This document shows, piece by piece, positions 6,310 to 64,000 of a stretch of 64,000 nt of DNA; within the stretch, counting starts at the first letter, position 1; each line of letters begins with the position of its first letter. The stretch spans positions 8,246,001 through 8,310,000 of the forward strand of contig JAGIQG010000006.1 in the NCBI GenBank assembly GCA_024679065.1. Direction: 5' to 3'. This DNA is from Sphyrna mokarran (taxonomy: Eukaryota). The translations under genes and the position numbers were made by a program. The notes under the pieces are model-generated. The model did not search any database. It worked only from the letters and a program-made list of their open reading frames with translations, and was not told the origin of the DNA.

Positions 6310-9300
6310 CCCCATGTGTTTTAATGCGAGGAGTGTGACTGGCAAAACAGATGAACTGAAGGCAATAATGTTCGAGAGGAAGTTAAAAGTGGTGGCGGTG
6401 ACTGAGACGTGGCTAAAGGAAGGGCAGGACTGGCAATTGAATATTCCGGGGTATAAGTGCTTTAGGCATGATAGAGGTGGTTTGAGGAGAGGAGGGGGAG
6501 TGGCGTTATTAGTTAAGGATCACATCATAGCAGTGCAGAAGGAAGGTAGTGTGGCTGAGTTTGGAATTGAGTCGCTATGGGTGGAGTTGAGGAATAGGAA
6601 GGGAGAGGTTACTATGTTGGGTGTGTACTACAGACCGCCCAAAAGTCCACGTGCCATGGAAGAAGGGATATGTAAGGAAATTTTAGATAAGTGTAGGAAG
6701 AATAGGGTAGTTGTAATGGGAGATTTCAATTTCCCTGGGGTAGATCGGAAGGTGCCAAGAGTGGAAGGTGCGGACGGGGAGGAATTTGTACAGTGTGTTT
6801 TAGAAGGGTCCTTGGAGCAGTATGTGGATAGCCCGACTAGAGAGGGGGCTATACTGGATCTGGTTCTGGGGAATGAGCCAGGGCAGGTGGTTGACGTTGT
6901 AGTAGGACAGCATGTGTCTAATAGTGACCACAACTCTGTCTGCTTTAGGGTATTAATGGAAAAAGATGAAGCCTGCCCTAAGGGGAGGGTGTTAAACTTG
7001 GGGGGAGGGCTAGATATAGCCAGATTAGGCAGGATCTTAAGGATACCGACTGGGATAAGCTGTTCGAGGGTAGGTCGACGCTGCACATGTGGGAATCTTT
7101 CAAGAGAAAACTAAAATTTTTGCAGGATAGACACGCGCCGGTAAGGAGGAAGGATGGGAAGGGTAGGATTAGAGAACCGTGAGTTACTAGGGATGTTGAG
7201 GACTTGGTCAAGAAGAAGCAGGAGGCGTAGGTTAGATCCAGGCAATTGGGGACAGAGGCAGCGCTGGAAAAATATAGAGAGTGTAGACGGGATCTTAAAA
7301 GGGGTGTCAGAAAAGCAAAAAGGGGCCACAAAATGGCTTTGGCAGGTAGGATTAAGGAAAATCCTAAGGCATTTTACTCCTATGTAAGGAGCAAAAGGAT
7401 GGTTAGAGGGAAGATTGGACCTCTCAGGGACAGAGGAGGGGATCTATGCTTAGAGCCTGAGGGGATGGGGGAGATCCTGAATGAATACTTTGTGTCAGTA
7501 TTCACGCGAGAGAGGGGCCTGATGTCTGATGCTGGCTTTGAGGATTTTGAGGACCCGTTAAAGGAAATAATCATTACAAGGGACGAAGTGTTGGGGCTTT
7601 TAGGCAACATAAAGACTTATAAAGCTCCGGGGCCTGCTAAGGGAGGTGAGAGATGACATTGCTGGGCCTCTGACGCAAATCTTTGTCTCTTCTTTGGACA
7701 CAGGTGAGGTCCCAGAGGACTGGAGGATTGCAAATGTAGTACCGTCGTTTAAAAAAGGGTCAAAGGGATAACCCAGGGAACTATAGGCCGGTGAGCTTGA
7801 CTTCAGTTATAGGTAAGCTAATGGAGAGGATCCTCAGGGACAGGATGTATGAGCATCTGGAGCGCTGAGATCTGATCAGGGATACGCAGCATGGCTTCGT
7901 TAAGGGGAGGTCGTGCCTTACGAACCTAGTGGAATTTTTTGAAGAGGTGACAAAAACGGTTGATGAAGGACAAGCCGTTGATGTCGTCTACATGGATTTC
8001 AGTAAGGCATCTGACAAGGTTCCCCATGGTAGGCTGATAAAAAAGGTGAAGGCGCATGGGATACAGGGCCAGGTATGTAGATGGGTTGAGAACTGGCTTG
8101 GGAGGAGAAGACAGCGGGTAGTAGTGGAAGGCTCCTTTTCCAACTGGAGGTCAGTCACTAGTGGTGTGCCACAGGGCTCAGTACTAGGACTTCTTCTATT
8201 TGTGGTTTATATAAATGACTTGGAAGAGGGGGTAGGTGGTGTGATCAGCAAATTTGCTGATGACACTAAGATGCTTGGATTGGCGGGGACTGAGGAGCAG
8301 TGACAGGCAATACAACAGGACATAGACAGGCTGGTAGACTGGGCAGATAGATGGCAAATGGAATTTAATCCGGATAAATGCGAGGTGATGCATTTTGGCC
8401 AGAATAATGTAGAGGGGAGTTATAGGATAAAAAGTAAAACTATCCGGAGTATAGAGACGCAGAGAGACCTGGGGGTGCAGGTTCACAAGTTTCTGAAGGT
8501 GTCAGTACAGGTGGAGAATGTGATAAAGAAAGCGTATGGTATGTTAGCCTTCATAGGAAGGGGTATAGAATACAAGAGTAGGAGTCTGATGTTGCAGGTG
8601 TATAGAACGTTGGTTAGGCCTCACTTGGAGTACTGCGTCCAGTTCTGGTCGCTGTACTACAGGGAGGATGTGGAGGCCCTGGAGACAGTGCAGAGGAGAT
8701 TTACCAGGATGCTGCCTGGTATGGAAGGGCTGTCTTACGAGGAAAGGTTGAACGCACTGGGGTTGTTTTCCGTTGAAAGACGTCGGCTGAGAGGGGATCT
8801 ATTAGAGGTATATAAGATTATGAGGGCTATAGATAGAGTAAATGGTGGTAAGCTTTTTCCACCATTAGATTCGGATAGAACGAGGGGTCACGGCCTTAGG
8901 GTGAGGGGGGCTAGGTATAAGACTAATATTAGAGGGCATTTTTTCACACAAAGGGTAGTGGGGGTGTGGAATGCACTACCGAGTAAGGTGGTGGGAGCAG
9001 GCACGCTAGGGTTGTTTAAGGGTCTCTTGGACAGCCACATGAGCAGTCTGCAGATAGAGGGATATAGTAGGACTGTCTAAATATCTTATTTGTTTCCACA
9101 GGCTATTCGGTCCACCTTGTTGACCAACAAGGCGCATGCATTCGGCAGGTCGTGCGAGGGCTGCTCTTGGATGTTACTTCAGGAGTGGCCTAGTGCTTCA
9201 TGTCGGTAGTGTATGCTTAAACTGGACCATCAGATGGGCAACATGACAGCTCAGAGACTATCGCTGTTGCTGTGCAGACACATGGATTTGGGCCTGTGTC

Positions 9301-12800: not shown

Positions 12801-15089
12801 GTTACAAAGGGGCATGGATAAGCTGCAGAACTGGGCTGAGAGATGGAAAATGGAGTTTAATGTGGTAAAGTGTGAAGTGATTCACTTTGGAAGGAGTAAC
12901 AGGAATACAGGGTACTAGGCTAATGGTAAGCTACTTAGTAGTGTGGATGAGCAGAGAGATCTCGGTGTACATGTGCATAGATCCCTGAAAGTTGGCACCC
13001 AGGTTGATAAGGTTGTTCAGAAGGCATACGGTGTGTTAGGTTTCATTGGTAGAGGGATTGAATTTCAAAGAACAAAGAACAAAGAGCAACACAGCATGGG
13101 AAACAGGCCCTTCGGCCCAACGAGCACACGCCGCCGTCCGAACGTCTTGATGACATATCCTTGACTTTAGGCTATGCCTATTGTTGAAGATTCCCATATA
13201 GGGACCAATATAGGGACAATTTGTTACCCAATCAGCCTAAGAGCACATTTTTGGGATGTGGGAGGAAACCGGAGCACCCGGAGAAAACCCACGCAACCAC
13301 GGGAGAACGCGCAAACTCCCGCAGACACAGGCCCAAATCCATGTGTCTGCACAGCAACAGCGATAGTCTCTGAGCTGTCATGTTGCCCATCAGATGGTCC
13401 AGTTTAAGCATACACTGACGACGTGAAGCACTAGGCAACTCCTGAAGCAACCTCCAAGAGCAGCTCTCGCACGACATGCCGCATGCATGCCCCTTGTTGG
13501 TCAACAAGGTGGACCGAATTGCCTGCGGAAACAAATAAGACTTAATTAATCATGCTAAAAAAAAACTAAGACATTCCCGAGACGAAACTAAAAGATAGTC
13601 TACTACTATTTGGTCCTCCCGATATTCAAACAGTCCTGCTATATCCCTCTATCTGCAGACCGCTCATGTGGCTGTCCAAGAGACCCTTAAACAACCCTAG
13701 CATGCCTGCTCCCACCACCTTACTTGGCAGTGCATTCCACACCCCCACTACCCTTCGTGTGAAAAAATGCCCTCTAATATTCGTCTTATACATAGCCCCC
13801 CTCACCCTGAGCCCGTGACCCCTCGTTCTATCCATTTCTAATGGTGGAAAAAGCTTAACACCATTTACTCTATCTATACCCCTCATAATCTTATATACTT
13901 CTAAAAGATCCCCTCTCAGCCGACGTCTTTCAAGGGAAAACAACCCCAGTGTTTTCAATCTTTCCTCGTAAGACAGCCCTTCCATACCAGGCAGCATCCT
14001 GGTAAATCTCCTCTGCACTCTCTCCAGGGCCTCTACATCCTTCCTGTAGTACGGCGACCAGAACTGGATGCAGTACTCCAGATGAGGCCTAACCAACATT
14101 CTATACACCTGCAACATCAGACTCCTACTCTTGTATTCTATACCCCTTCCTATGAAGGCTAACATACCATACGCTTTTTTTATCACATTCTCCACCTGTA
14201 CTGACACCTTCAGAGACTTGTGAACTTGCACCCCCAGGTCTCTCTGCATCTCTATACTCCGGATAGGTTTACCTTTTATCCTATAACTCCCCTCTACATT
14301 ATTCCGGCCAAAATGTATCACCTCGCATTTATCCGGATTAAATTCCATTTGCCATCTATCTGCCCAATCTACCAGCCTATCTATGTCATGTTCTATTGCC
14401 AGGCACTGCTCCTCAGTACCCGCCAATCCAATCATCTTAGTGTCATCAGCAAATTTGCTGATCACACCACCTACCCCCTCTTCCAAGTCATTTATATACA
14501 CCACAATTTCGGAGCCATGAGGTCATGTTGCAGCTGTACAAAACTCTGGTGTGGTCATACTTGGAGTATTGCATACAGTTCTGGTCACCACATTATAGAA
14601 AGGATGTGGAAGTATTGGAAAGGGTGCATAGAAGTTTACCAGGATGTTGCCTGGTATGGTGGGTAGGTCTTATGAGGAAAGATTGAGGGACTTGGGGTTG
14701 TTTTCATTAGAGAGAAGAAGATTAACAAGTGATTTAATAGAGGCATACAAGATGATCAGAGGATTAGATAGGGTGGATAGTTAGAGCCTTTTTCCTCGGA
14801 TGGTGATGGCTAACACGAGGAGACATAGCTTTAAATTGAGGGAGTGATAGACATAGGACACTTATGAGAGGTAGGCTCTTTACTCAGAGGGTAGTAAGGG
14901 TATGAAGTGCCCTGCCTGCAGCAGTTGGACTCGTCAACATTAAGGGCATTTAAATGGTCATTGGATAAACATATGGATGATATTGGAATAGAGTAGATTA
15001 GATGGGTTTTAGATTGGTTTCACAGATCGGTGCAACATAAGGACCAAGGGGCCTGCACTGCGCCGTAATGTTCTACGTTCTATGTTCTC
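9870..15089 (+). mobile_element. Near full-length older CR1 LINE: ORF1 remnant (Cys/Zn-finger-like start, SGNH/GDSL esterase-like domain) and ORF2, interrupted by a nested CR1
   Basis: SCGMFEV..SCRKC at 9884-10066; decayed DSVVRG..VCCLPG..HIGTND at ~10290-10465; EN at 10880-11510; RT at 12072-13060, resuming at 14511; tail at ~15050-15089. Confidence 0.85.
13067..14504 (-). mobile_element. Young CR1 (same subfamily as 6310-9512) nested in the older CR1, with 3' module
   Basis: 292-aa RT C-terminal ORF 13626-14504 nearly identical to 8200-9080; module at 13067-13540; TSD AATTTC at 13061-13066 and 14505-14510. Confidence 0.93.
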
Positions 15090-23968: not shown

Positions 23969-24373
23969 TAAGAAGCAATGTAGAGTCAGTGTCCGTGGAA
24001 GTGCCGGCGAGTGTGAGTGGGACAGTCGGACACTCCGTCCTGCTGCCGTGCAAGTTCACCTCCCCCTTTATGAGTTACACGACTTTTGAGATTTCCGTCA
24101 TCTGGAAAATGAAGACGTTTTACAAAGGGCCAGTTCTCTTCAACTCGACAAACAAAGTCAGGAGCCAGGAAACATTCGAGAACGTCGTTCACACAAATGT
24201 CAACGGCCGCTACAGATTGGCCGGGGACCCCAGGAAAAACAACGCTTCGTTAGAACTGAGGAGCGCCACCTTGGAGGACAACAATCAGTACTTCTGCCGA
24301 GTGGAAATCAAACGTAAGGGATTACCGCCTTACATGCGGGAAACCAACCCCGGAATCACCCTGAAAATAACAG
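23969..24373 (+). CDS. SIGLEC15-like: Siglec-15-like gene, exon 2: Ig V-set sialic-acid-binding domain
   Basis: Acceptor ttgcag| at 23968, donor ACAG|GTAAAC at 24373, phase 1/1. Translation ...VLLPCKFT...VIWK...GRYRLAGDPRKNNASLEL...DNNQYFCRVE... matches the Siglec-15 pattern (GRFRLLGNPRRNDLSL...YFCRVE, recalled); essential Arg codon CGA at 24298-24300. Confidence 0.92.
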
Positions 24374-25554
24374 GTAAACTCAACATTAATTGCTGGGGTT
24401 TGGGCAGAGATACTGATTAGAGTTAGATCAGTCTGACAGATGGGTGAAAATATCTCCCTCCTGCTCTGAGATCCTCTGTGACATGCAACGCTCTGGAGAT
24501 GTTATACGAGGTTGACGGGGTCATTGCTCCTTCTCCATGATCTTTGTGTCCTTTGACATGGTCAGTCGCCCCTCCAATGTCTGTCCCTCCATTGCCCAGT
24601 GTATTTTCACTGGCCTTCAGGCAGACATGCCGAGTGGATGGTCCATCCTGAGGTCTCCAGCAATCCAGATGTTTATCTCCAGCTAATCCCATTCATTCTG
24701 TTTAATATGGAGATAGGGCTGAAGGTACTGGATACACAAAGGCAGTGGGTCCTGACAATGTTCCAGCAATAGTACTGAAGACTTTCTGTGCCCCTAGCCA
24801 GCACAGTTACAATTTCTGCAAGAATAAGTGAGAAAATGCTCTTGGAGAGAAAGGGATCAAAGAATATGGGGGAGGGCAGATCAGAGCTGGATGATTAGCC
24901 ATGATCATAATGAATGGGGGAGTAAGTTTGAAGAGCTGAATGGCCTCTTTCCTTTCTATTCTCAGTGTTTCTAACATGGGCATCTACCTAACAATGTGGA
25001 CAATTGCTCAGGAATAACCTGTACACAAGGAACAGGTCAAATCCAATCCAACCAATTATTGCCCCATTAGTCTACTCACAATCATCAGTAAAGTGAATGG
25101 AAGTTTAAGTTTATTTATTAATCTTGCAAGTAGATTTACATTAACACTGCAATGAAGTTACTGGGAAAATCCACAAACTGATACCTGTTCGGGTACACTG
25201 AGGGAGAATTTAGCATGGCCAATGCACCCTAACCAGCACATCTTTCAGACTGTGCAAGAAAACCAGAGCACATAGAGGAAACCCACACAGACACAGGGAG
25301 AATGTGCAAACACTGCACAGACAGTGACCCGAGCTGGGAATTGAACCTGGGTCCTTGGTGCTGCAGGGATCATTGGTAGTGCTATCGAGTGGCACTTACT
25401 GAGCAATAACCTGCTTCCTGATGCACAGTTTGGGTTCCAGCAAAGTCTCTCAGTTCCTGATCTCAATATTGGTTCGAACATGGACAAAAACGCTGAACTC
25501 CACTTGCCCTTGGATCAAGACACTAATAACTTTCCAAAAATGCTGAATAATCCA

Positions 25555-26820
25555 TAAGAACATAAGAAATAGGAGCAGGAGTATGCCATCCAGCCCCTCG
25601 AGCCTGCCCCGCCGTTCAGTAAGATCATGGCTGATCTGTAGTGGTTCAGTTCCACTGTCCCACTTTCTCCCAATAACCCTTAATTCCCTTGTCAATTAAA
25701 AACCTATCCACTCTTGACTTGAACGTATTCAGTGAGGAAGCCTCCACTACCTCATCAGGCAGAGAATTCCAAAGATTCACCACCCTCTGCGTGAAGAAAC
25801 CCCCTCCGCAACTCTGATCTGAACCGCCCCCCCCCACTAATCTTGAGGCTGTGCTCTCTATTTTTGTTAAGTGGGAAGAGTCTCAACCTCTACCTTATCC
25901 ATCCCCTTCATTATCTTATACATCTCTATAAGATCCCCTCTCAGCCTTCTAAACTCCAAAGAGTACAAACCTAGCCTATTCAGTCTCTCCTCATAATCCA
26001 ACACCCTCATCTCCGGTATCAGCCTAGTAAACCTTCTCTGCACCCCCTCCAAGGCCAATATATCCTTCCTCGAATTCGGCTACCAAAACTGCACACAGTA
26101 CTCCAGCTGCTGCCTCACCAGTGCCCTGTACAGCTGCAACAGAACCTCCCTACTTCTATATTCTAAAATCCAGAGACAAAAGTGGGAGAAATAAATACAA
26201 TAACTATCATCAGACAAAAAGTACCAGGGAAACTAATAGGACTAAAGGCTGTTAAGTCCCCTGAATCTAATGGTTGCATCTGAGGATATTGAAGGAAGTA
26301 CCTCCAGAGATAGTGGATATATTGGTCATCAACTTCCTAGAATCCTTAAATTCTGGAAATGTCCCAGGGGATTGGAAAAGTCCCAATGTAACACCCTCAT
26401 TCAAACAGAGAGAGAAAAACAGACAACCAGTTAGTCCAACATCTGTCATTGGGAAAATGTTAGAGTTTATTATGAAGGATGTAATAGCAGAGTGTTTAGG
26501 AATACACAATATAATCAAACAGAGTCAGCATGGCTTCAGGAAGGGGAGAGCATACCTGAAATTGATTGGAATTACTTGAAGTCAGAGAGTCGCAGAGTTT
26601 TAATGCACAGAAAGAGACCCTTTGGTCCATCCTTTCTGTGCCAGCCATCAAGCACTTATCTATTCTAATCCCAATATCCAGTACTTGGTCTGTAGATTTG
26701 TAGATAGCAAGCAGGATAGATAATGGAGAACCAGTAGGTGTAATATAATTGGATTTCCAGAAAGATTTCAGTGAGGCACCACACAAAATGTCACTTAATA
26801 AGGTCTATCTATGGTGCTGG
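25555..26820. mobile_element. Back-to-back CR1 fragments (25555-26165 minus, 26170-26820 plus)
   Basis: ORFs 25646-25837, 25867-26058 and 26274-26579 carry CR1 RT motifs. Confidence 0.8.
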
Positions 26821-26842
26821 TATTAGGGTAAGATGTTGATGA

Positions 26843-27180
26843 GGAGGCAGTGGCACAGTGACATCATCACTGGACTAGTAATGCAAAGACATAGGGTTAA
26901 TGGAGCCCAGGTTCGAATCCCACCAGGGCAAAATTCAATAAAAAATCTGGAATTAAAACCATTTTGAATTATCATAAGAGCCAATCTGGTTTACTGGTGT
27001 CCTTTAGGGAAGGAAATCTGCCATCATTACCTGGTCTGGCCTACATGTGACTCCAGAGCCACAGCAATGTGGTTCAATTTGAAATGGCCTACAAGCCACT
27101 TTGTTCAAGGGGCAATTAGGGATGGGTAATAAATGTTGGCCCAGCCAGTGACACCCATGTCACATAAATGAATAAAATAT
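26843..27180 (+). mobile_element. Deu-type (SacSINE1-like) tRNA SINE, near full length; other copies at ~5690-5905, 15540-15690, 20480-20840, 36470-37110 (two, minus), 38890-39060, 43915-44148 and 45785-46120 (minus)
   Basis: Head GAGGCAGTGGC..GGTTCGAATCCCACC, conserved core CTGGTT..CT..TGTCCTTTAGGGAAGGAAATCTGC, tail GGGATGGG.AATAAATG; family name from recall. Confidence 0.7.
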
Positions 27181-27205
27181 ATTAACAAAGAACAAAACAG
27201 CATGG

Positions 27206-29440
27206 GAAACATAGAACATAGAACATAGAACGATACAGCACAGAACAGGCCCTTCGGCCTTCGATGTTGTGCCGACCAAAATAAAAAGCAATGCCCCTCC
27301 AAACTAAACCATTCCCTTCTCTTCCATATCAATTAACCTCTTAAACGCCACCAAACTTGCGCATCTACAACAGCTGCAGGCAGGGCATTCCACTCCCTAA
27401 TCACTCTTTGAGTAAAGAACCTACCTCTGATATCCGTCCTATAACTCATACCCTTAATTTAAAGCTGTGTCCCCTCGTGCTAGCTTTCTCCATCCTAGGA
27501 AAAGGCTATCACTGTCCACCCTATCTAAACCTCTAATCATCTTATATGTTTCGATTAGGTCCCCTCTTAGCCGCCTCCTTTATAACGAAAACAACCTCAA
27601 ATCCCTCAGCCTCTCTTCATAAGACCTGCCTCCATACCAGGCAACATCCTGGTAAACCTCCTCTGTACCCTCTCCAATGCCTCCACATCTTTCTTATAAT
27701 GTGGGGACAGAACTGCACACAATACTCCAAGTGCGGCCGCACTAGAGTTTTGTACAGTTGGAACATGATGCTGCGGCTCCTAAATTCAATCCCCCTACCA
27801 ATAAAAGCTAAGACTCCATATGCCTTCTTAACAACTTTATCCACTTGACTGTCTACTTTCAGGGATCTATTGACACATACACCAAGATCCTTCTGTTCCT
27901 CAACACTATTAAGAGCCCTACCATTAGCCCTATACTCTACACATTTATTGTTCCTGCCAAAGTGCATTACCTCACACTTTTCCACATTAACCTCCATTTG
28001 CCACCTCTCGGCCCAGCTCTGCAACTTGTCCAAGTCACTCTGTAAACTAAAACACCCTCTTCACTATCTACCACACCACCAACTTTAGTATCATCTGCAA
28101 ATTTACTGATCCATCCCTCAATACCCTCATCCAGATCATTTATAAAAATTACAAACAGCAGGGCCCCAAAACAGACCCCTGAGGCACACCACTTGTCACC
28201 GAACTCCACGATGAATATCTCCCATCAACACCACCCTCTGTCTTCTATCTGCCAGCCAATTCCTAATCCAATTAGCTAAATCACCCTCTATTCCACACAT
28301 CTGCATTTTCTGTAGAAGTCTTCCATGGGCCACCTTATCAAATTCCTTACTAAAGTCCATATATACTACATCAACCGCCTTACCCCCATCCACCTCTTTG
28401 GTCACTTTCTCAAAAAACTCAATGAGGTTAGTAAGGCCTGACCTACCCTTCACGAAACCATGCTGACTATCCCCAATCAATTCATTTCTCTCTAAATAAC
28501 TATAAATCCTATCCCTAATAATTCTCTCAATACCTTGCCCACCACAGAAGTAAGACTCACTGGCCTATAATTCCCAGGAAGGTCTCTCTTCCCCTTCTTA
28601 AACAATGGGACCACATTCACTATCCTCCAGTCCTCCGGAACCACACCCGTAACCAACGAGGACCTGAAGATCAGAGCCAGAGGCTCTGCAATCTCCTCTC
28701 TTGCCTCCCAGAGAATCCTAGGGTAAATCCCGTCCGGCCCGGGGGACTTATCCAACTTCAAACCCTCGAGAATTTCTAGCACATCCTCCCTATCTACTAC
28801 AATACTTCCCAATTTGCAACCCTGTACCTCAGTGTTCTCCATAGCTACATTTCCAGCACTCTGTGTGAATACCGAAGAGAAATATTTATTCAGTGCCTCA
28901 CCAATCTCTTCAGGCGCCACGCACAACTTCCCACTGCTGTCTATGACTGGCCCTAATCTTGCCCTAACCAATCTTCTATTCTTAACATATCGAAAGAAAG
29001 CTTTAGGATTCTCCTTAATCCTATCATCCAACATCTTCTCGTGTCCCCTCTTAGCTCTCCTCAATTCACTTTTTACCTCCTTCCTGGCTAATCTATAGCT
29101 ATCCATTGCACTATCTGAGCCTTCAAGCCTCATCCTGACATAAGCCTCCTTTTTCCTTTTAACCAGCAAATCAACTTTTTCGTACACCAAGGTTCTCTTA
29201 CTCGACCATTTCCTCCTTGCCTGACAGGGACATACTTATCAAGGACTCGCAGCAGCTGCTCCTTGAATAAGCTCCACATTCCAGATGTTCCCAGTCCCTG
29301 TATTTTCCTAGTCCAATCTATGCACCCTAATTCTCTCCTGATGGCCTCATAATTACCCTTCCCCCAGCTATAACTACTGCCCCCAGCTTCATGCCTATCC
29401 CTGTCCATCACTAAGGTGAATGTAACCGAATTGTGGTCAC
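27206..29440 (-). mobile_element. CR1 LINE ORF2 fragment with (AGAACAT)n tail
   Basis: ORFs 27617-28033, 27967-28209, 28196-28480 and 28492-29190. Confidence 0.9.
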
Positions 29441-30697
29441 CAACAGGCCCTTCGGCCCAACGAGCCCGTGCCACCATCTCGATGTTCCCACTTCTACCCA
29501 TGATCCCTGTCTATGTTTATAGATCTATGAATTGGAACCAAATTTGAGCCAGTTTAGGGAGAATTTGTTCTGCTAATCAGCCTAAGAGCACATCTTTGGG
29601 ATGTGGGAGGAAACCGGAGCACCCGGAGAAAACCCACGCAAGCACGGGGAGAATGTGCAAACTCCCACAGACACAGGCCCAAATCCATGTATCTGCACAG
29701 CACAGCGATAGTCACTGATCTGTTGTGTTGCCCATCAAATGGTCCAGGTCAAGCGTTTACTAACGACGTGAAGCACTAGGATACTCTCGAAAAATCCAAG
29801 AGCAGCCCTCTCACGACCCATCGCATGTATGTTCCTCATTAGACAACAAGTCGCCCTTCATCGACTGTTTTCATCACCTCCTCAAAACATTCTACCAGAT
29901 TCGTAAGGCACGACCTCCCCATAGCAAATCCATGCTGCTTATCCCTAATCAGATCGCAATGCTCTAAGTGCCTATACATCCTATCCCTAAGAATCCCCTC
30001 CAACAGCTTTCCTACCACTGATGCCAAATTCACTGGCCTATAATTCTCAGGGTTATCCCTACTACCCTTTTTAAACAACGGTACAACATTAACTATTCTC
30101 CAGTCCTCTGGGACCTCACCTGTGTCCAAAGAAGAGACAAAGATTTGTGTCAGAGGCCCAGCAATTTCACCTCACACCTCCGTAAGCAGCCTGGGATAAA
30201 TGCCATCAGGCCCAGGAGATTTATCAGGTTTAATACTACCTAGAAGCTCTAACACTTCCTCCCTCGGTATGGATATTTCCCTCAACTGGTCCACAGCTCC
30301 CTCAGAGACAGGACCGGTCAACAAGCCCCTCTCCTTCGTGAATACCGACACAAAGTATTCATTCAGGATCTCCCCCACTCCCTCGGGCTCTAAGCACAGT
30401 TCCCCTTCTCTGTCCCTAAGAGGTCCAATTTTTCCTCTAGCACCCTTTTATTCCTAACGTAGGAATAAAAAGTCTTTGGATTTTCTTTAATCCTATCTGC
30501 CAAAACCATTTCATGTCCCCTTTCTGCCCTTCTAACTCCCTGTTTGAGCTCCCTCCTACTCTCTCTATATTCCTCCAACGCTCTCTCCGTTCCCAGCTGC
30601 TTTGACCTATCATACGCCTCTCTTTTCTTCCTCACCAAATCCTCAATATTCCTGGTAATCCACGGCTCTCTAATCCTACCTTTCCCATCCTTCCTCA
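29441..30697 (-). mobile_element. Internally deleted CR1 carrying a divergent version of the 3' module
   Basis: ORF2 pieces 30390-30698, 30172-30378 and 29839-30129 join directly to the module (29441-29850). Confidence 0.85.
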
Positions 30698-31089
30698 TGG
30701 ATAGAGGATTGGCTAATTGATAGAAACTCTATCAGCATCTTCACATTGTAATTGAAAGAAGACAGAGAGTTGGGATTAGTTGGGTGTTATGTTGGTACAG
30801 TTGTACAGTGATTAGCACTGCTGCCTCAGCGCCACGGATCTGAGTTCGATCTGGGCCTTGGGTCACTGTGCAGATTCCACACATTCTCCTTGTGTCTGCA
30901 TGGGTTTCCTCCGGGTCCTCCACAGTCCAAAAGATGTGCTGGTTAGGTGGATTGGCCACGCTAAATTCTCTCTCAGTGTACCTGAACAGGTGCCTGACTG
31001 TGGCAACTAGGGAATTGTCACAGTAACTTCATTGCAGTGTTAATGTAAGCCTACTTGTGACACTAATAAACGACCTTAACCTTAAAAGA

Positions 31090-32160
31090 GGGGTAATTTC
31101 AGAATGGCAACTTGTGGAGTGTCCCAGGGAGCAGTGCTGAGTGCTGGGGCCACAATTATTTACAATATATATCAATAGTTTGGATGAGGGAAGTGAAAGT
31201 ACCATTGCCAAGTTTGTGGGTGACTCAAAAATAGGTGGGAGGCAAGTGGTGGGGATGACACCACAGAGGGATATAGACAGGTTAAATGAGTGGGCAAAAA
31301 TTTGGCAGATGGAATATAACATACAAAAGTGCACTTTGGTCAGAAGAATAAAGGAGCTGAATATTATTTAAATGGAGACAGACTGCAGAAAGTTGCAGCA
31401 CGGAGGGGGTTTGGGATCCTCGTGCATAAATCACAAAAAGCTAACATGCAAATTCAGGTGATAATAGAGAAGGCAATTGGAATGTTGGCCTTTATTTCAA
31501 AAAGAATGGAATATAAAATTAGGGAAGTCTTGTTAAAACTATACAAAGCACTAGTTAGACCACATCTGGAATACCGTGAACAGTACTGGTCTCCTTATCT
31601 AAGGAAAGATATGCTGGCATTGGAGGCAGTCAAGAGAAGATAAAGGTACATGGTACACTCTATCAATCAGGGTATAGACTACAAAAGCAGCAATGATGGA
31701 GTTGTATAGAATTGTATAGAATTATAAGAGATTGAATAGGTTGGGTCTGTACTCACTGGAGTTTAGAAGAACGAGAGGCCACCTTATTGAGATATATCGG
31801 ATTCTCGGGGGGTTGACAGGGTCGATGCTGAGAGGTTGTTTCCCTTTGTGGGAGAGTCTGGGAGCAGAGGACAGAGTCTCAGAGTGAGGGGGTGACCCAT
31901 CAGAGACAGAGATGAGGAGGAATTTCTTCTTTCAGAGGGAGTGAATCTGTGGAATTCTTTCCCACAGAGCTCTGTAGAGACTGGGCACTAAGTAGGTTCA
32001 AGGCTGAGACAGACAGATTTATAATTAATCAGGGAATCAAGGGTTATGGGGATAAGGTGGGAAAGTGGAGTTGAGGATTTTCACATCAGATCAGTCATGG
32101 TCTCATTGAATGGCAGAGCAGACACGATATGGCAAATGGCCAATTTCTGCTCCTACGTCC
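31090..32160 (+). mobile_element. Old CR1 RT/3' fragments
   Basis: ORFs 31141-31371 and 31329-31643. Confidence 0.8.
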
Positions 32161-32796
32161 AATGTCCCTGACATCAAGGCCCCATTTTCCTGAGTGTGGT
32201 ATCAAGGATCCCTGTAAAACTGGAGTCAATGATTGCACGACGTTCAGCACCATTCACCACTCCTCAGATACTGTAACAGTCGATGCTCAAATGCAGCAAA
32301 ACCTGGACAATGTCTTATTTTATAAACACGTTAAAGGGAAGAGGTTGGTCAGGGGAAGTGGCCGGCCCATTAGAGACTGAGGGGACAACCTGTATGTGAA
32401 ACTTCAGGACTTTGGAAGGGTGATTTAAATCAATATTCTCATTGGTCTTCACTCAGGAAAAGGAGAACGTAGGTATGGACTTCAGGAAAAGGGACTGGGA
32501 GGACCTTGCAGAGTTTAACATCAGAAATGAGGAGGTATTGGAGGTTCTGACAAGTTTAAAAATGGACAAATTCCCAGGCCTGGATGAATTGCATCCCAGG
32601 CTGCTGTAGGAAGCAAGGCAGGAAATTCCGGGGGCTCTGACACAACACGTTAATTCTTCTCTGGCCACGGGGAGGTGCCAGAGGACTGGAGGACTGCTAA
32701 TGTGGTTCTACGTTTCAAGAGGGATGGTAAAAATGAATTCAGAAATTACACTGAGTCTCAGGTCAGTGAAAGAGAAACTATGGGAGAAAATTCTGA

Positions 32797-33039
32797 GTAA
32801 GAATTTAGCAACACCAATTTTAAATCCAACCGATTTATTTGATAGTAAAATTACGAGCTTTCGACACTCTGTGTCTTTGTCAGGCAAATGCAGTGTTACA
32901 CTGCATTTGCCTGACAAAGACACAGAGTGTCGAAAGCTCGCAATTTTACTATCAAATAAATCGGTTGGATTTAAAATTGGTGTTGCTAAATTCTTACTGA
33001 GTTCTTACTACCTCAGTCCAACTCCGGCATCTCTACATC
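32797..33039. mobile_element. Penelope-like (pLTR-derived) fold-back insertion: 101-bp inverted arms plus a ~40-nt tail
   Basis: Arms 32796-32896 and 32898-32998 (1 mismatch, 1-nt loop); 12-bp TSD AGAAAATTCTGA at 32785-32796 and 33040-33051; contains AATAAA and a hammerhead motif. Confidence 0.8.
32907..32943 (+). ncRNA. Minimal type I hammerhead ribozyme motif (G8A variant); mirror copy at 32851-32887 on the minus strand
   Basis: UUGC-CUGACAA-A-GACAC-AGA-GUGUC-GAAA-GC-UC-GCAA: stem I, core, stem II, GAAA, palindromic mini stem III and UH; the core reads CUGACAA instead of CUGANGA. Confidence 0.7.
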
Positions 33040-34537
33040 AGAAAATTCTGAAGCAGAGGATTAATCTCCACTTGGAAAGGGATGGGTTAATTAGGGATAG
33101 TCATTATGGATTTATCTGAGGGTGGGGTCATGCCTAACAAATTCATTAAAAAGTTTCAAATATGTGATCAAGTGTGTGGATCAGGGAAATTGATGTAATT
33201 TATATGGATTTTAGCAAAGCCTTGACAAGGTCCCACATGGGAGACTGCTTGAGAAGTTTGAAGCACACAGAATTCAGGGAAACTTGGTGAGATGGATCCA
33301 GAACTGGCTCGGTAATAGGACATGGAGATAGTGGTTGAGTGATTAGAATGTGGGGTTTAGTGATGCACTAAAGGTTCAGTACTGGGAACTGTTATTATTT
33401 GTTATATACATCAGTGATGTAAGTGAAAATGTGGGGGAGTGATTAGCCAGTCTATAGATAACACCAAGATTGGTAGGACGATTAATAACGAAGAATGTGG
33501 TCATAGATTACAGGAAGATATAAGTGGGCTGGACAGATGGACAGGGCAGTGGTAGATGACGTTTAACCCTGATAAGTGCGAAGTGATGCACTTTGGAAGA
33601 AATAACAGGACAAAGGAATATTTAATGAATGCCAGAACACGAGGAAGCTCAGAGGAAGAGAAGGATTCTGGGGCACTTATTCTGGAAGATGGAAGAGCAA
33701 GTGAATAGTTAAAGGGCATGTGGGACAGTTACTTTTATCAGTCATGGCATAAAGTATAAGAGCAAGGAGGTCATGGAGAAGTTGTACAGAGTGTGGGTTA
33801 GGCGACAGCTGGAGAACTGTGGGCAGTTCTGGTTGCCATGTTATGGGAAGGATGTGATTGCACTGGAGGGGGTGCAGAGGAGATTCATCAGGATACTGCC
33901 TGGGTTTGGAACAATTGAGCTACAAGGAAAGACGGGATAGGCTTGGATTGTTTTCCCTTGAGTAGAGAAGGCTGAGGGGGGGATATGATTGAGGTGTATA
34001 AAGACTATGTGAGATACGGACAGGGTGAGTAGGGAACAACTGTTCCCCTCGGGTGAGGGGTCAGTCACGAGGTGATACAATTTTAGGATGAGGGGCGATT
34101 CAGAGGGGATTTGAGATTTTTTTTTCACTCAGAGGGTGGTGGGAATCTGGAATGCGCTGCCTGGGAAGGTCGTGGAGGCCGAAAACCTTACAACTTTAAA
34201 AAATATTTAGATAAGCACTTGAAACACCAGAACATTCAAGAATATGGAACAAGGGCAGGAAGACGGGTACCTTTAGTGGTAGTTATTGTTGGTGCAGACT
34301 CGATGGGCTGAAGGGCTCTTTCTGTTGTGTATGTCTCTGGGAAGGAACTGAAATGTAATTTTTATATCTTCCTCTTTCTAGTCTCCTAATGTTGAGCCAG
34401 CTGCTTCCTCTATTAGCACAGTGACTCATCCAGTCAGTGTTCAGTCTGATGTTAACTCGGCTGAATTAGTGCATTAATCACAAGGCATCCTGCTCAATGA
34501 TTCAGCATCTCACTTCAACTCTTCTCTTTGCTCTCAG

Positions 34538-34921
34538 GCCCACCCACCATCCTCAACACGTCCATCCAAGTTATTAATGACACACAGTTTACCTTCTTGT
34601 GCCTGGCCAGAGGGGAACCCACCCCGAACATCGTGTGGCTCGACCCCCAGAACAACAGCCTCCCCATCAATGGCAGCAACACGCCAGTGAGGCCAGGCCC
34701 AGGGAAGTACCAGGTGCTGGGGGAATTACACGGCCCAAAGCTTAGTGGGAACTACACCTGCAAGGCCACCAACAACCGAGGCAACGTCACTCACATCATC
34801 TTCTTCGCTGGCCTCAGCGAGGGCCGCGTTCTGCTGAAGGTTATCATCGGAGTTTTAATTGGGAGCCTCCTTTTAATAATCCTGATTGTTATCGTTCTTG
34901 TGATGTGGAAGAGGAAAAGCG
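34538..34921 (+). CDS. SIGLEC15-like: Siglec-15-like gene, exon 3: Ig C2-set domain plus transmembrane helix
   Basis: Acceptor ctctttgctctcag|, donor AGCG|GTAAGG, phase 1/1; PPTILNTS..FLCLARGEPTPNIVW..GNYTCKATNNRG then VIIGVLIGSLLLIILIVIVLVMW-KRKS. Confidence 0.92.
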
Positions 34922-35024
34922 GTAAGGCCATTTATAATTTAATATTTTACATGGGGTTCAATGAAATAAAAGTGTGTGATTTGGGCGTCATGTAACTTTA
35001 CAAAGGATAGCAGATCCCCAATAT

Positions 35025-41689: not shown

Positions 41690-43890
41690 CATTTATTTTA
41701 ATGCAAGGAGTCTTATGGATAAGGCTGACGAACTGAGGGTGTGCATTAACACATGGGGATATAATATTATTTCTATCACAGAGACATTGCGGAGGGAAGG
41801 ACATGACTCTTGAGACGAGTCAGGGACGGGCTGTAAACCAGGGAGTGGTGTCACAATATTGATTAAGGAATCAGTGAGTGCAGTAAGGAGGGATGATGTC
41901 TTAGTAAGCTCCTCAATTGAGGCCATATGGGTGGAAATGCAAAATAAAATGGGGGCAATCATATTGTTGGGGGTGTACTACAGGCCCCCAAACTGTCAGG
42001 GAGAACAGAAAGTGCAAGGAGCGGGGGCAGGGGGGTGGGGCGTAATTCAAATAGAAATTAGGAAAGTAAAAAAGAGCATAAAAAACAATGGCAGGCAAAA
42101 TAATGGAAAATCCCAAGTGTTTTATAATGATTTAAAGGCAAGAGGGTAACCAGGGAAAGAGTGGGCCTCATTAGAGACTAAAGTTCAACATTTATGTGGA
42201 GCTGATGGATATAGATGATGTATCACCACATCTGTCTTCACCCAAGAGAATGAGGATGACGGTATGGAATTCAGGGAGAGAGACAGTGAGGAATTTGAGC
42301 AACTTGACATAGGGACAGACAAGGTATCGGAGATGTTGCAGCCTTAAAAATAGATAAATCTCCAGATCCAGATGAATTGTGACCTAGACTGCTGTGGGAA
42401 CCTGACACAAATTTTCAATTCCTCTCTGCAGAACTTCCACTCACCTGACAAAGGGACAAACTGCGAAAGCTAGTGGTGTTTATTACCAAATAAACCTGTT
42501 GGACTTTAACTGGTGTTGTGAGACTTCTTACATAGGAGAGGTGTCAGAGGACTGGCAAACAGCTGATGTTGTACCATTATTCAAGATGGGAAATAGAGAA
42601 AAAAACTAGGAAATTACAGGCCAGTGAGTCTAACATCAATGAAAAGAAACTTTTTGGAAAAAAACTCTGAGGTGCAGGATCAATATCCACTTGGACAGAG
42701 GCAAGGGTTAGTTAAGGAAAGTCAGCATGGCTTTGTTAGGGGAAGATCACATCTAACATACTTGATTGAATTTTTTGAGAAGATGACGTAGAACATAGAA
42801 CATAGAACACTACAGCACAAAACAGGCCCTTCCAATATAAAAAGCAATGCCCCTCCAAACTAAACCATTCCCTTCTCTTCCATATACTTATCAACTAACC
42901 TCTTAAACGCCACCAAACTTGGCGCATCCACAACTGCTGCAGGCAGGGCATTCCACTCCCGAACCACCCTTTGGTAAAGAACCTACCTCTGATATCCGTC
43001 CTATAACTATCACCCCTTAATTTAAAGCTGTGTCCCCTCGTGCTAGCTTTCTCCATCCTAGGAAAAAGGCTATCACTGTCCACCCTATCTAAACCTCTAA
43101 TCATCTTATATGTTTCAATAAGGTCTCCTCTTAGCCGCCTCCTTTCTAACGAAAACAACCTCAAATCCCTCAGCCTCTCTTCGTAAGACCTGCCCTCCAT
43201 ACCAGGCAACATCCTGGTAAACCTCCTCTGTACCCTCTCCAATGCCTCCACATCTTTCTTATAATGCGGGGACCAGAACTGCACACAATACTCCAAGTGT
43301 GGCCGCTAAGGTACAGTTGCCTTCCTGAAAAGATCTTGATGACTAAGGGTGTAGATGAGGACAGTGCACTTGATGTAGTCTATCTGGAATTCAGTGAGGC
43401 TTTTGACAAGGCCCCACATTTGGAGACTGATCGGGAAGGTAAGAGCCCATGGGATCCAGGATAATTTGGCAAATTGAATCCAAAATTGGCTTTGTGGCTC
43501 GAGGCAGAAAGTGATGGTGGCAGGTTATTTTTGTGACTTGAAGCTTGTCACAGGAATGGGTGCAGGATCCTTTACTATTTATCATGCACCTTGATGATCT
43601 GACGTGAATGTGGACGGTATGATCAGTAAATTCACAGCTGAAATGAAAATTGGTGGTGTGGTAAATAGCAAGGAGGAAAGTCTTAGACTACAGGGTGATA
43701 CAGAGGGGCTGGTCTGAAAGGCAGAACAATATCAAATGGAATTTAAGTCTGAAAAGAGTGAGGTGATGTGCTTTAATGGACAAGGAGAGGGAATACACAA
43801 TGAATGATTGTACGGAAGTACAGAGGACCAGAGGGACCTTGTGATGCATGTCCAAGGATCCCTGAAGGCAGCAGAACAGGTAGATAATAA
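41690..43890 (+). mobile_element. Old deleted CR1 ORF2 with a nested Penelope-type fragment (~42430-42531) and a nested minus-strand CR1 3' end (~42790-43310)
   Basis: NARS/EN remnants at ~41700; RT remnants at 42540-43890; ORF 42895-43296. Confidence 0.8.
42430..42531 (+). mobile_element. Penelope-type pLTR fragment with a decayed hammerhead motif
   Basis: CAC-CTGACAA-AGGGACAAACTGC-GAAA-GC-TA-GTG, then CAAATAAACCTGTTGGACTTTAAC..GACTTCTTAC, homologous to the 32898-32998 arm. Confidence 0.7.
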
Positions 43891-49800: not shown

Positions 49801-50306
49801 ACGTGCTAGTTAGGTGCATCAGCCCAATGCTACATTCTCCCTCAGTGTATCCGAACACAGAGTGGGGCAACAAGAGGATTTTCACAGTAATTTCATTGTA
49901 GTGTTAATGCAAGTCTACTTATGACTAATAAATAAACTTTTAAAAAAACATAATCCAGATTTAAATACTTGCATCAGAGATTCAAAAGACTGGGGTGGGA
50001 ATTCTCCAGCCTTTCATAATCCCACTGCCAGGGAATTTGGCACTCCACCGAATCCCTGTTCACAACAGCGGGACTGGAGAATCCCAGCTGCAGGCAAAGT
50101 CGGAAAATCCAATTCTGGATTTTACCCCAGTCGGGAAACAAAAGTGAGAGTTTTACCCTGTCCCACATTGGCTATGCATTTATTAGGCTTTGCCAGTGCT
50201 CCCAGGCACATTAAGCAGATAACTAAACTGCAAAGTCCCCAGATACAGAGTCAACAATTAATATGGAGTGAATTAACTATCATTCAGTGGCTGGTTTAAT
50301 TTTTAG

Positions 50307-50447
50307 TAAGAAGTCTGACAACACCAGGTTTAAGTCCAGTCGATTTATTTGATAATAAATTCACAAATAAATCGGTTGGACTTAAACCTGGTGTTGTCAG
50401 ACTTCTTACCATGTTTACCCCAGTCAAATGCCAGCATCTCTATATCA
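50307..50447. mobile_element. Second Penelope-type fold-back insertion (46-bp arms)
   Basis: Arms 50306-50351 and 50364-50409 (2 mismatches); 15-bp TSD TGGTTTAATTTTTAG at 50292-50306 and 50448-50462; tail homologous to that of 32797-33039. Confidence 0.8.
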
Positions 50448-53400
50448 TGGTTTAATTTTTAGCCAGAGGATTGTTTTGCTATTCACTGTGATGGATTCAC
50501 TCTGCATTTGACCTGGGGCAGAATCCAACTGAGACGGAGATTGCATCTTGTAGAAAGTAAATGTCTTAACTACAACAACGCCGATTTGCATTTATATAGC
50601 ACCGTTAATCCAAGGTTCATCACAACAACACAAAGACATTTGAGCCATGCCACATGTGACGTTGGGCCGAATCTTCTAAGGAATCATCTTCAGGTTGTCA
50701 TTCGACTGCAGAGATTTATATCTCTCGCTTGCAGTTCCTCTGATCTGATTTATTATTGTCACATCTATTAACATACAGTGAAAAAGTATTGTTTCTTGTG
50801 CGCTACATAGACAAAGCATGCTGTTCTAGAGAAGGAAACGAGAAAGTACAAAATGTAATGTTACAGTTACAGCTAGGGTGTAGAGAAAGATCAACATAAT
50901 GCAAAGTAGGTCTATTCAAAAATCAGCTGGCAACACGGAAAAAGCTGAATTGATTGGTTTATGACCTCAGACTTTGGTATCTTTTTCCCGATGGAAGAAG
51001 GCATAAAAAAACTGTGTGCGGTTCTTGATTATGCGGCAGCTTTTCCGAGGCAGCAGGAAGTGTAGACAGAGTCAATGTTCGTGGATTCAGTCCTGCTCTG
51101 GAGATGTGAGCCCATGACTAAACCTGGCTGTCTGAGTTTTGCACCGAGGAAACGTTCGATCATTGTAGGTGCTGCTCTTAATTTGAAACAACAAACCAAG
51201 ATCTCACCTGAAAAGTCTTCAAAGAATAAGAATGTGGTGATTGTCATCATTGTCTCTTTAGGGGAAACACAGCAGAGTAAGGGTCACCTGACCTGGGAGA
51301 CCAATTAGGATGACAGTGGATAAGCATCCAGGGCGAGGAGCTCTAACTTAGGCAGAAGGCAATCTGAAGACATGTAGAAGACATGTGCGTACAGGGGCAT
51401 CCAGAGGGCTCCAAAAGACCCTAGAAGTGGGGAAATCCAGAGAGAGGGCAGTGAAAGACGCTAATGGACCAAGTGAAGGGCAACGAGGTAATTGCAGAAT
51501 GGAAACCCATTCCACACTTTGCTGGAGACAGACCCGGCCAACGGTGAAGTTAAGTAGAAATTGAAGTTCCGTTTATGTGATGTCTGTGGTCAGTAAGAAT
51601 ATGATGCATTCCCCTGGGAGGAAACGTAGAAATTGTTCAAAGCTCTTCTGTTCAAAATAGAACATCCATCTGCTAGGCTGAAGAGCAATCCTGGACTCCA
51701 CTGCCATTGATTCTTCAGAATTACAAGTCCAGTATTTCTGTCGATCTCTATGTTTGACTTCATTATACTGTTTAAAACTAGAAATCCAACTATACAATAG
51801 AGGAATATTCATGTTTTAAATTTCACACTAAGATAATAGACAAGTACAGATGGAAGATAAGATCCATTGGGAAGGCCCATCATTGTGAATAACTAAAGAT
51901 GTTAAACCCAAAGAGAACATATATAATTGTCTAAAGGCAAACTGCAGGTCAATGATTAGAAATAATGACAAAATGATTGATAAGCAGGGATTAACTAAAT
52001 TACAAGAAAAAAGACTAGCCAGAAATTTGAAAAAAGGTTATTACCATGTGTAATATAAAGGGCATTTACAAAGTGAGGACGTGTAAAAGAAAGAACATGG
52101 TCAGAGCAGGTTTGGAGGGCCAAAGGACGTGTTACTGTGCTGTAATGTTCTTTGTTCTCTGGAGGAGAAGTTAGAATCACAAAAACATAAGGACATTAGA
52201 ACTAGGAGCAGGAGTCAGCCATTGGCCCCTCGAGCCTGCTCCACCATTCAATAAGATCATGACTGATCTTACCCGCTCCACTCACCATAACCCTTACTTC
52301 CTTTACCGTTCAAAAATGTATTTATCCTTGCCTTAAAAAGATGAAATTATCAACAGCAAACTTGACAAAAAAAGCTGTCAAAAATTGACAAAATGAACTT
52401 AAAAGTAGAATAAATGAATGAGACAATGTGGAATAAGCTGAACTCCATAAATAAGCAACTAGAAAATAACAACAAGAATTGAATCTGGAGAATAAGTGCT
52501 TGAAAAAGGAAGCTTGATAATGAGAAATTAATGGAAGGGGTAAAAACAGTGAAATTGACAGCAGAATCAGCAATTCAGAGAAAGAAAATGAGATTACATG
52601 CCAGAAGAAGCTTGCTGAAATGGTCCTGGGAATGGAACAGCAGCAAGCCTACATGGAACAACTCCATACAAGACTATACCTGGAACTGTATATTGTTAAA
52701 GCTCATCAATAAAAGTGCTTATGTTTAAACACACACAAGTCTCAAGGTCTCATCAATGAGTCATCAAGGAATGTTTTCAAATCTGGAAGTACCTGATTGA
52801 CCTGTTATCGATATAATTGATGTCTCTGTGGGAATAAGGAGCAATGGACTGCTTCTACCAGAAGAAGAATCAGTTATGGCAGTTCCTGTTAATGTTAATC
52901 CTGTGGAAGCATCTCTGCAAAGATCTACAAGAATTGTGAAAGGCGCTATTGAAATAAAAGTCTATCTTTTTTCAGAAGAATTTGCTGCTCTCTTCTGTGC
53001 TTGTTGACATGGTGATGTTACCAAGGTGGGGAACTCTTGAAGCCTCCATTTTGGGGCACATGGTACCATGCGTTGGAAGTCCAATTCAATATGCACTCTT
53101 TAACTCAACCAAATCTCTTATAAACACGTTGTCCTTAACACCCAGGAGGCCGAATGGCCTGCTTCAGTCCCATATGTTGATCTCTTGTTGTCAGATAAAG
53201 AGTTACACGTTCCTCGCCTCTTGGTCCTGTTTCATTGCTTTGCAACAGTTGCGTAAATTACAGCTGGAAAAGAAAATTTGGTTTCAGGGCTTTTTTTTTA
53301 CATTGAATTGTTTAAAGTTTATTTATTAGTGTCATGAGTAGGCTTACATTAACACTGCAATGAAATTACTGTGAAAATCCCCTGGTCACCACACTTTGGC

Positions 53401-59589: not shown

Positions 59590-60165
59590 AAGGCATCAAT
59601 GGGGCATGCTTCCTCACTCCAGACCTCCTGGGAGGAGCACATTTCCCCCTCACCGCTGACCTCCTGGGGGGGGGGGGGCCTCAATGGGCACATTCCCCTC
59701 ACCACTGACCTCCTGGGGAGACCTCAATGGGCACATTCCCCTCACCACTGACCTCCTGGGGAGACCTCAATGGGCACATTCCCCTCACCACTGACCTCCT
59801 GGGGAGACCTCAATGGGCACATCCCCCCACCACTGACCTCCGGGGTGGGGGGGGGCCTCAATGAGCACATCGCCCCCCACCACTGACCTCCTGGGGGGGG
59901 GTCTTAATGGGCACATCCCCTCACCGCTGACCTTGTGGGGGGGGCCTCAATGGGCACATCCCCTCACCGCTGACCTTGTGGGGGGGCCTCAATGGCACAC
60001 CCCTCACGCTGACCTTGGGGGGGGCCTCAATGAGCACATCCCCTCACCGCTGACCTTGTGGGGGGGGGCCTCAATGGGCACATCCCCCCCACCACTGATC
60101 TCCTGGGGGGGCTCAGTGGGCACATTCCCCCATGCCTGACCTCCTTGGGGGGGCCTCAATGGCCT
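59590..60165 (+). repeat. ~43-bp GC-rich minisatellite with a variable G-run (~13 units)
   Basis: Unit CCTCAATGGGCACATTCCCCTCACCACTGACCTCCTGGGG(G/AGA)n. Confidence 0.93.
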
Positions 60166-63830: not shown

Positions 63831-64000
63831 ATTTTTGAAAACTCTGTACATATTTGCTGGTGAACTCTTTATTTTGAACACTCTGTTTCTCTGAGTATCA
63901 TTATAGAATCATAGAATCATAGAAAATCTACAGCACAAACAGGCCCTTTAGCTCATAAGTTGCACCAATCATATCTCTACCTTCTAGGCTTAACTATAAC

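Follow-up and report, generated by a model that had tools for sequence, protein, structure and literature searches.

Head-to-head arms of a likely Penelope-like element, with a degenerate hammerhead motif, in a SIGLEC15 intron of Sphyrna mokarran

Introduction

The closest described systems are the EN+ Penelope-like elements (PLEs), Penelope/Poseidon and Neptune (PMC8557442, PMC3846280, PMC11167929, PMC2377424). Craig et al. (PMC8557442) describe an inverted, 5'-truncated copy that adjoins the element's 5' end and a tail of 30-40 bp at one end. In the account of Arkhipova et al. (PMC3846280), the junctions are palindromic and head to head, the tail has 31 bp, and the target site duplications (TSDs) have 8-10 bp. 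Cervera and de la Pena (2014, PMC4209133) report pairs of minimal hammerheads in PLEs, 100-700 bp apart on opposite strands. A mirror arrangement is already reported for PLEs (PMC4209133, PMC8557442, PMC3846280). The PLE protein of Anolis nicks and extends both target strands and prefers ATT (Frangieh et al., PMC11167929). Its reverse transcription starts at two RNA sites, the spacing of which equals the tail (PMC11167929). The origin of the inverted structures and the role of the hammerhead are stated as open questions (PMC8557442, PMC11167929).

The non-LTR retrozymes (bioRxiv 10.64898/2026.07.22.740005) are a second group of interest. They are described as non-coding and PLE-derived, carry a type I hammerhead, and were reported in the only chondrichthyan sampled.

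We analyzed a stretch of 64,000 nucleotides from Sphyrna mokarran (contig JAGIQG010000006.1, positions 8,246,001 to 8,310,000), here called the window. It contains a 243-bp insertion, copy A, in an intron of SIGLEC15. We are confident that copy A consists of two likely PLE ends (pLTRs) joined head to head, that it was likely inserted recently by an enzyme from elsewhere in the genome, and that its hammerhead is, by prediction, inactive.

Results

Host gene and surrounding LINE

The features that surround copy A are as follows.

23986-24375, plus strand: SIGLEC15 V-set exon (tblastn match coordinates)
24374-34537, plus strand: SIGLEC15 intron from V-set to C2, 10.2 kb, with GT at 24374 and AG at 34536-37
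34531-34938, plus strand: SIGLEC15 C2 and TM exon (tblastn match coordinates)
32480-33600, plus strand: decayed LINE reverse-transcriptase (RT) region that hosts copy A; its flanks align to an RT ORF
62135-63868, minus strand: LINE RT frame of 577 aa, uninterrupted (Pfam RVT_1, E 1.9e-32) and better preserved than any other LINE piece in the window

Copy A lies about 1.5 kb upstream of the intron acceptor. The best solved-structure match of the upstream Ig exon is Siglec-15 (7zoz, E 1.6e-17). The best 10 protein matches of this exon are all from sharks or rays, and the top match is Siglec-15 of Mustelus asterias (86%). When mapped onto the window, the Mustelus asterias protein falls on five plus-strand exons between 23986 and 46859. 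Its residues run consecutively across the V-set and C2 exons, and copy A therefore lies within one intron. A preliminary description of this DNA had named a Siglec intron as the host, and both the SIGLEC15-like exons and the splice sites (GT 24374, AG 34536-37) agree with it.

The LINE that hosts copy A is presumably of the CR1 type. In the 577-aa RT ORF at 62135-63868, the left flank corresponds to residues 151-165 and the right flank to residues 168-189. Collinear RT residues across the site are expected from a clean insertion with a TSD. The host LINE is 64-78% identical to its relatives within the window.

Other repeats were seen in the window. Two near-alike LINE 3' frames (8304-9080, plus strand; 13626-14522, minus strand) are opposed and about 4.5 kb apart, upstream of the mapped exons. 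Low-complexity or tandem repeats, seen as repetitive translations, are present at 59837-60139 and 2371-2676.

Layout of copy A

Copy A and its target site span 32785-33051 and contain the following parts.

32785-32796: left TSD, 12 bp, 75% AT, with AATT at positions 5-8
32796-32896, minus strand: inverted arm, a 5'-truncated pLTR-like piece without a tail; it carries the hammerhead-like motif on the minus strand, with a G-U pair in stem I
32897: head-to-head junction, a single unpaired base (T32897)
32898-32998, plus strand: direct arm, in sense relative to the SIGLEC15 transcript
32999-33039, plus strand: tail, 41 nt, unpaired, found on a single arm, with homology to the copy B tail
33040-33051: right TSD, a 12/12 match to the left TSD

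The arms are identical at 100 of 101 positions; the single mismatch is A at 32853 and C at 32941. A scan of the whole window (loops of 0-10 nt, arms of at least 20 nt, and at most 2 mismatches) retrieved this as the sole long palindrome centre. The insertion itself occupies 32797-33039 and contains, in order, the inverted arm, one base, the direct arm, and the tail. The direct repeat that flanks it (32785-32796 and 33040-33051) matches at 12 of 12 positions, with a chance probability of about 1e-5 over 121 registers. Base 32796 is common to the left TSD and the first arm.

The preliminary description had reported the arms, their one mismatch, and the 1-nt loop, all of which were confirmed, and the motif string that it quoted reads as given on both strands. 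It had also set the arms directly between 12-bp TSDs. The repeat holds at 12/12, but the 41-nt tail (32999-33039), which was missed, parts the second arm from the right TSD, and the arms are not flush with both TSDs. At 32999-33012, the tail contains about five extra bases relative to copy B, which locally repeat the TTCTTACT block and resemble slippage.

Sister copies

Two further members of the family were retrieved from the window by BLAST and profile search.

50292-50462, plus strand: copy B, consisting of TSD, inverted arm, short spacer, direct arm, and tail, without a hammerhead core
~42431-42532, plus strand: copy C, a single arm in another LINE, without a tail; the 5' boundary is approximate

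(a) Copy B. This copy is located 3.4 kb beyond the last SIGLEC15 coding exon. Its TSD (50292-50306 and 50448-50462) matches at 15 of 15 positions. Its arms are identical at 44 of 46 positions, and the tail is on the direct arm only. The predicted hairpin has an energy of -78 kcal/mol.

(b) Copy C. This copy is located within the last coding intron of SIGLEC15. No TSD was seen on inspection by eye. It is possibly a palindrome that lost one arm. Its hammerhead core contains A8, with C3 at 42445 and N17 at 42472, and its stem II is decayed.

Copy A is 67-74% identical to copies B and C (26-33% diverged, with many transitions), and the identity between B and C is 84-87%. The tail-less ends of all three copies halt at one TTCTTAC block. 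The tailed ends of A and B agree within a base or two; counted from the TTCTTAC anchor, the tail is 42 nt in A and 38 nt in B. AATT is found near the middle of both TSDs (copies A and B; two cases only), which are 75% and 80% AT; this agrees with the ATT preference of the Anolis PLE protein (PMC11167929). An nhmmer search of the window with a profile of the five arms retrieved only those five, plus two discarded rows (E 0.38 and 2.4). Since the end points are the same in three independent insertions, neither a chance palindrome nor an assembly fold-back can account for copy A.

Assignment to Penelope-like elements

The order of TSD, inverted arm, direct arm, tail, and TSD is the published layout of a PLE insertion. 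Copy A contains the inverted 5'-truncated copy, the one-ended tail with fixed ends, and the TSD at an AT-rich site. We assign it to the PLEs because this anatomy fits. A PLE origin is likely from the layout, as distinct from direct homology to a named PLE. We take similar repeats to be present in shark genomes, which agrees with the assignment. Copy A is likely one among many PLE remnants. The preliminary description had read the arms as an inverted Penelope-type pLTR end with a minimal type I hammerhead-like motif, and the results support this reading.

Copy A shares the inverted copy and the palindromic junction with the EN+ PLEs cited above. It also shares with them the tail at one end only, the TSD, the AT-rich target, and the minimal hammerhead in the pLTR. 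Unlike these elements, it contains no ORF, and both arms are only about 100 nt. The tail of copy A (41 nt) and the TSDs of A and B (12 and 15 bp) reach or slightly exceed the ranges published for PLEs (PMC8557442, PMC3846280).

The translated arm and tail of copy A had no match among 1.84 billion proteins. Among the 75 window ORFs of at least 100 aa, Pfam identified nine RVT_1 domains, two AP-endonucleases, two Ig domains, and one weak DUF, and the GIY-YIG family was found in 0 of 75. An autonomous EN+ PLE, which would encode a telomerase-like RT and a GIY-YIG endonuclease, was rejected, given an insertion of just 243 nt between the TSDs and the GIY-YIG count of 0/75. The conserved pattern of copy A had no match in prokaryotic genomes, as expected.

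In non-LTR retrozymes, the units are repeated directly in tandem and each contains an intact hammerhead, whereas the arms of copy A are inverted relative to each other and their core is broken. No tandem copy of it was found at 31500-34500 or by the window-wide homology search. Identity as a non-LTR retrozyme was rejected, since tandem direct repeats are absent. A literature search, with most subscription journals outside its reach, found no paper on shark PLE hammerheads.

Hammerhead-like motif

The motif on the direct arm contains the following sites.

32907-32943, plus strand: degenerate minimal type I hammerhead, with stem I at 32907-32910/32940-32943 and stem II at 32919-32923/32927-32931
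Core sites, plus strand: C3 at 32911, A8 at 32916, G12 at 32932, and a palindromic AGCU at 32935-32938; the predicted cut is after C17 at 32939

The motif agrees with the PLE consensus in stem I, in the extra base after A9 and before G10.1, and in a 5-bp stem II with G10.1-C11.1. It also agrees at GAAA, at the palindromic 15.2-16.2 (AGCU), and at the NUH cut triplet (UC). Like the metazoan minimal hammerheads of PLEs (PMC4209133), it contains a U-rich lead, a short stem I, a CUGAN core, and an AU-rich trail. In those hammerheads, G8 with C3 is usual, whereas copy A encodes A8 with C3 unchanged. The core reads CUGACAA in both arms, and copy C likewise contains A8 with C3 kept.

A strict descriptor (canonical CUGANGA) retrieved no match in the window. 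A looser version, set up after the sequence had been seen, accepts either A or G at position 8; it retrieved three matches in the window, all in the family of copies A, B, and C. The rate of this descriptor in 100 Markov sequences was 0.07 per 64 kb, and 0 when stem II was at least 4 bp. Between copies A and C, both sides are changed in two of the four stem I pairs. This hints at covariation but is not significant: 95 of 500 shuffles reach the same, and only two independent copies are compared. The isolated arms over 63 nt fold no better than shuffles (z -0.59 and 0.17), and the 41-nt motif has a z of -1.68. The motif likely descends from a hammerhead.

The preliminary description had called the two motifs ribozymes and had named a search with the Rfam hammerhead model as a check. 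That search retrieved nothing from the whole window at the gathering threshold, and no hammerhead family was among the rows at E<=10 in three sub-regions (23, 5, and 2 rows). The canonical CUGANGA is absent. Among 44 rows examined in the published alignment of PLE hammerheads, 41 contain C3-G8, two U3-A8, one U3-G8, and none C3-A8 (PMC4209133 Fig. S3). The label of ribozyme was therefore rejected for copy A, as C3 with A8 is absent from these 44 rows.

A8 with C3 breaks the C3-G8 pair. In the Anolis PLE, cleavage was lost when either G8C or C3G disrupted the pair (PMC11167929). No cleavage test of G8A was found in the literature searched. Metazoan minimal hammerheads have no monomer cleavage and low dimer cleavage. 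The two motifs of copy A are on opposite strands, so that they cannot form a dimer within one transcript. No same-strand partner was found near copy A; within the window, the closest is copy C, which is 9.5 kb off and decayed. By analogy with the G8C and C3G data and the alignment, the motif is predicted to be inactive in self-cleavage, because of the broken C3-G8 pair, the burial in a hairpin, and the lack of a same-strand dimer partner.

Age of copy A

One difference was found in 113 paired positions of the arms and TSD (95% interval, 0.02-4.8%). The CpG observed/expected ratio is 0.83 in the insertion (7 CpGs in 243 nt), versus 0.29 in both flanks and 0.31 in the window. The perfect TSDs, the kept CpGs, and the diverged host LINE point to copy A as a young insertion into an old LINE. 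If it is young, A8 was already present in the donor. CUGACGA cores occur in the published alignment of PLE hammerheads (PMC4209133), and the A8 of the donor probably arose from such a core by CpG decay.

The main alternative keeps the PLE origin but makes the insertion moderately old. The arms would have been kept alike by gene conversion, template switching, or assembly polishing, and A8 would have arisen by CpG decay after insertion and then been copied across. This would account for copy A being only 67-74% identical to B and C, since a divergence of 26-33% would also fit a moderately old copy with homogenised arms. A8 is moreover the product of CpG deamination of CUGACGA, and the window is CpG depleted (o/e 0.31). 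Against this, the TSDs lie outside the palindrome yet match at 12/12, with a P of 0.008-0.027 at the age of the A-versus-B/C split, and seven CpGs persist in 243 nt. An intermediate age is still compatible with the TSDs and the CpGs. We consider the older insertion unlikely and retain the young one.

Predicted RNA and host consequences

The SIGLEC15 pre-mRNA is predicted to fold copy A into about 100 bp of double-stranded RNA (dsRNA). The predicted fold of 32780-33055 has an energy of -178.3 kcal/mol (z -27.9), and 0 of 200 shuffles are as stable. In the full transcript, the pair probability of stem II is 4e-18 to 5e-17, and a fold constrained to contain the hammerhead stems is about 62 kcal/mol less favorable. 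The preliminary description held that the hairpin sequesters the motif, which agrees with this predicted stem II probability of ~1e-17. Copy A is by far the best-matched inverted pair in the SIGLEC15 intron (97.6% over 209 nt). Ten other inverted pairs between repeat fragments in the intron (24374-34537) are 66-83% identical and are weaker dsRNA candidates.

Dicer is a less likely fate for nuclear intronic dsRNA. Editing by ADAR is the expected fate of the copy A dsRNA, which is a reasonable prediction by analogy. Palindromic repeats and lizard Penelope copies are reported as substrates of ADAR hyper-editing (PMC5625713). Like copy A, the hyper-edited repeats form long, near-perfect dsRNA from a pre-mRNA repeat (PMC5625713). 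The elephant shark is tabulated among the species in the same hyper-editing survey (PMC5625713).

Copy A could instead be a domesticated intronic switch, in which an active hammerhead would regulate the SIGLEC15 pre-mRNA while masked by the antisense arm, and A-to-I editing at position 8 might restore the core pair. The sense arm is in transcript orientation, 1.5 kb before the acceptor, and stems I and II are intact; conserved intronic hammerheads are known and have been proposed as regulators in amniotes (PMC6155905). Copy A contains C3 with A8 and no helix III, has no same-strand partner, and would face the penalty of ~62 kcal/mol. It is also a young insertion within a decayed LINE, and metazoan minimal hammerheads do not cleave as monomers and cleave little as dimers. 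Editing would presumably strike other core adenosines too. We regard such a switch as very improbable. Copy A today is likely a passive intronic repeat that would not cleave itself, and the analysis gave no sign of a selected function.

The long hairpin also resembles a MITE, a foldback DNA transposon, or a microRNA precursor, and microRNA families make up 15 of the 23 Rfam rows at E<=10 in one sub-region. Every microRNA score is below its gathering threshold and reflects the hairpin only. The inverted repeat stops short of the right TSD by the 41-nt tail, the TSD is 12 bp in A versus 15 bp in B, and the arm length varies, which argues against a MITE. These identities are likewise very unlikely.

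Chimeric reads typically yield near-perfect palindromes with a 1-nt loop. An assembly or library fold-back, which copy A resembles in this and which would fit with the trouble that inverted PLE structures cause in assemblies (PMC8557442), is the least probable reading of all, as it would add no 12-bp TSD, one-arm tail, arm mismatch, or collinear host LINE and would not produce a second, diverged copy (B) with the same layout.

Discussion

Proposed insertion mechanism

For copy A as a pair of PLE ends, we propose the following route. A PLE protein would nick an AT-rich target on each strand, with 12 nt between the nicks. Each target end would then prime reverse transcription, at one of two fixed sites in the RNA that are separated by about 40 nt. 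Two priming sites at this spacing would leave one arm with a tail and the other without. Both cDNAs would end early. For the head-to-head joining, the simplest step is that one cDNA folds back and so provides the strand for the other to pair with. Self-priming on an antisense template, as proposed in PMC3846280, is an alternative route that fits.

Since A8 is in both arms, the donor RNA probably contained a dead ribozyme and was copied through uncut. Copying through an uncut ribozyme agrees with the finding that insertion in vitro persists in hammerhead mutants of the Anolis PLE (PMC11167929).

We disfavor a route in which the tailed cDNA simply folds back, because the tail-less inverted arm of copy B reaches further 5' than the direct arm, with seven of eight bases matching beyond the direct arm start. 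This holds unless a later central deletion in copy B is the source of its longer inverted arm.

End point of copy B

Read in sense, the inverted arm and spacer of copy B extend 13 nt upstream from the CAAATAAA block that the copies share. The distance from the predicted cut to this block is exactly 13 nt in copy A and 14 nt in copy C. The copy B segment opens with the same three bases as the post-cut stem I strand of copy C. Seven of its eight proximal bases match A and C, and one distal base is common to the direct arm. The inverted arm of copy B thus appears, by alignment, to terminate on the base that directly follows the predicted cleavage site. Its two informative bases would match by chance with a P of ~0.06 in one register. 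If the spacer is filler, the arm still ends at most 5 nt from the cut.

Copies A and C, which contain A8, read through the ribozyme, and copy B appears to stop at the register of the cut (n=1). The copies may be a fossil record of the in vivo Penelope cycle, in which active donors were cut and copied only up to the cut and A8 donors were read through; we offer this tentatively and rate it as somewhat unlikely. RNA-seq from Anolis gave no reads that end at the hammerhead cut, according to Frangieh et al. (PMC11167929). No report of PLE copies that end at the hammerhead cut was found in the literature searched.

Significance for the family

The locus itself carries little weight, as published work already covers inverted arms and tails, hammerheads on opposite strands, and the editing of Penelope repeats by ADAR. 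The copies are of use as clean specimens, since such short insertions keep both priming sites and both 5' stops. If the fossil record reading is true, they would show from genomic sequence that RNA cut by the hammerhead does serve as a template. Copy B, with its longer inverted arm, would then show that the tail-less cDNA is made independently and folds back.
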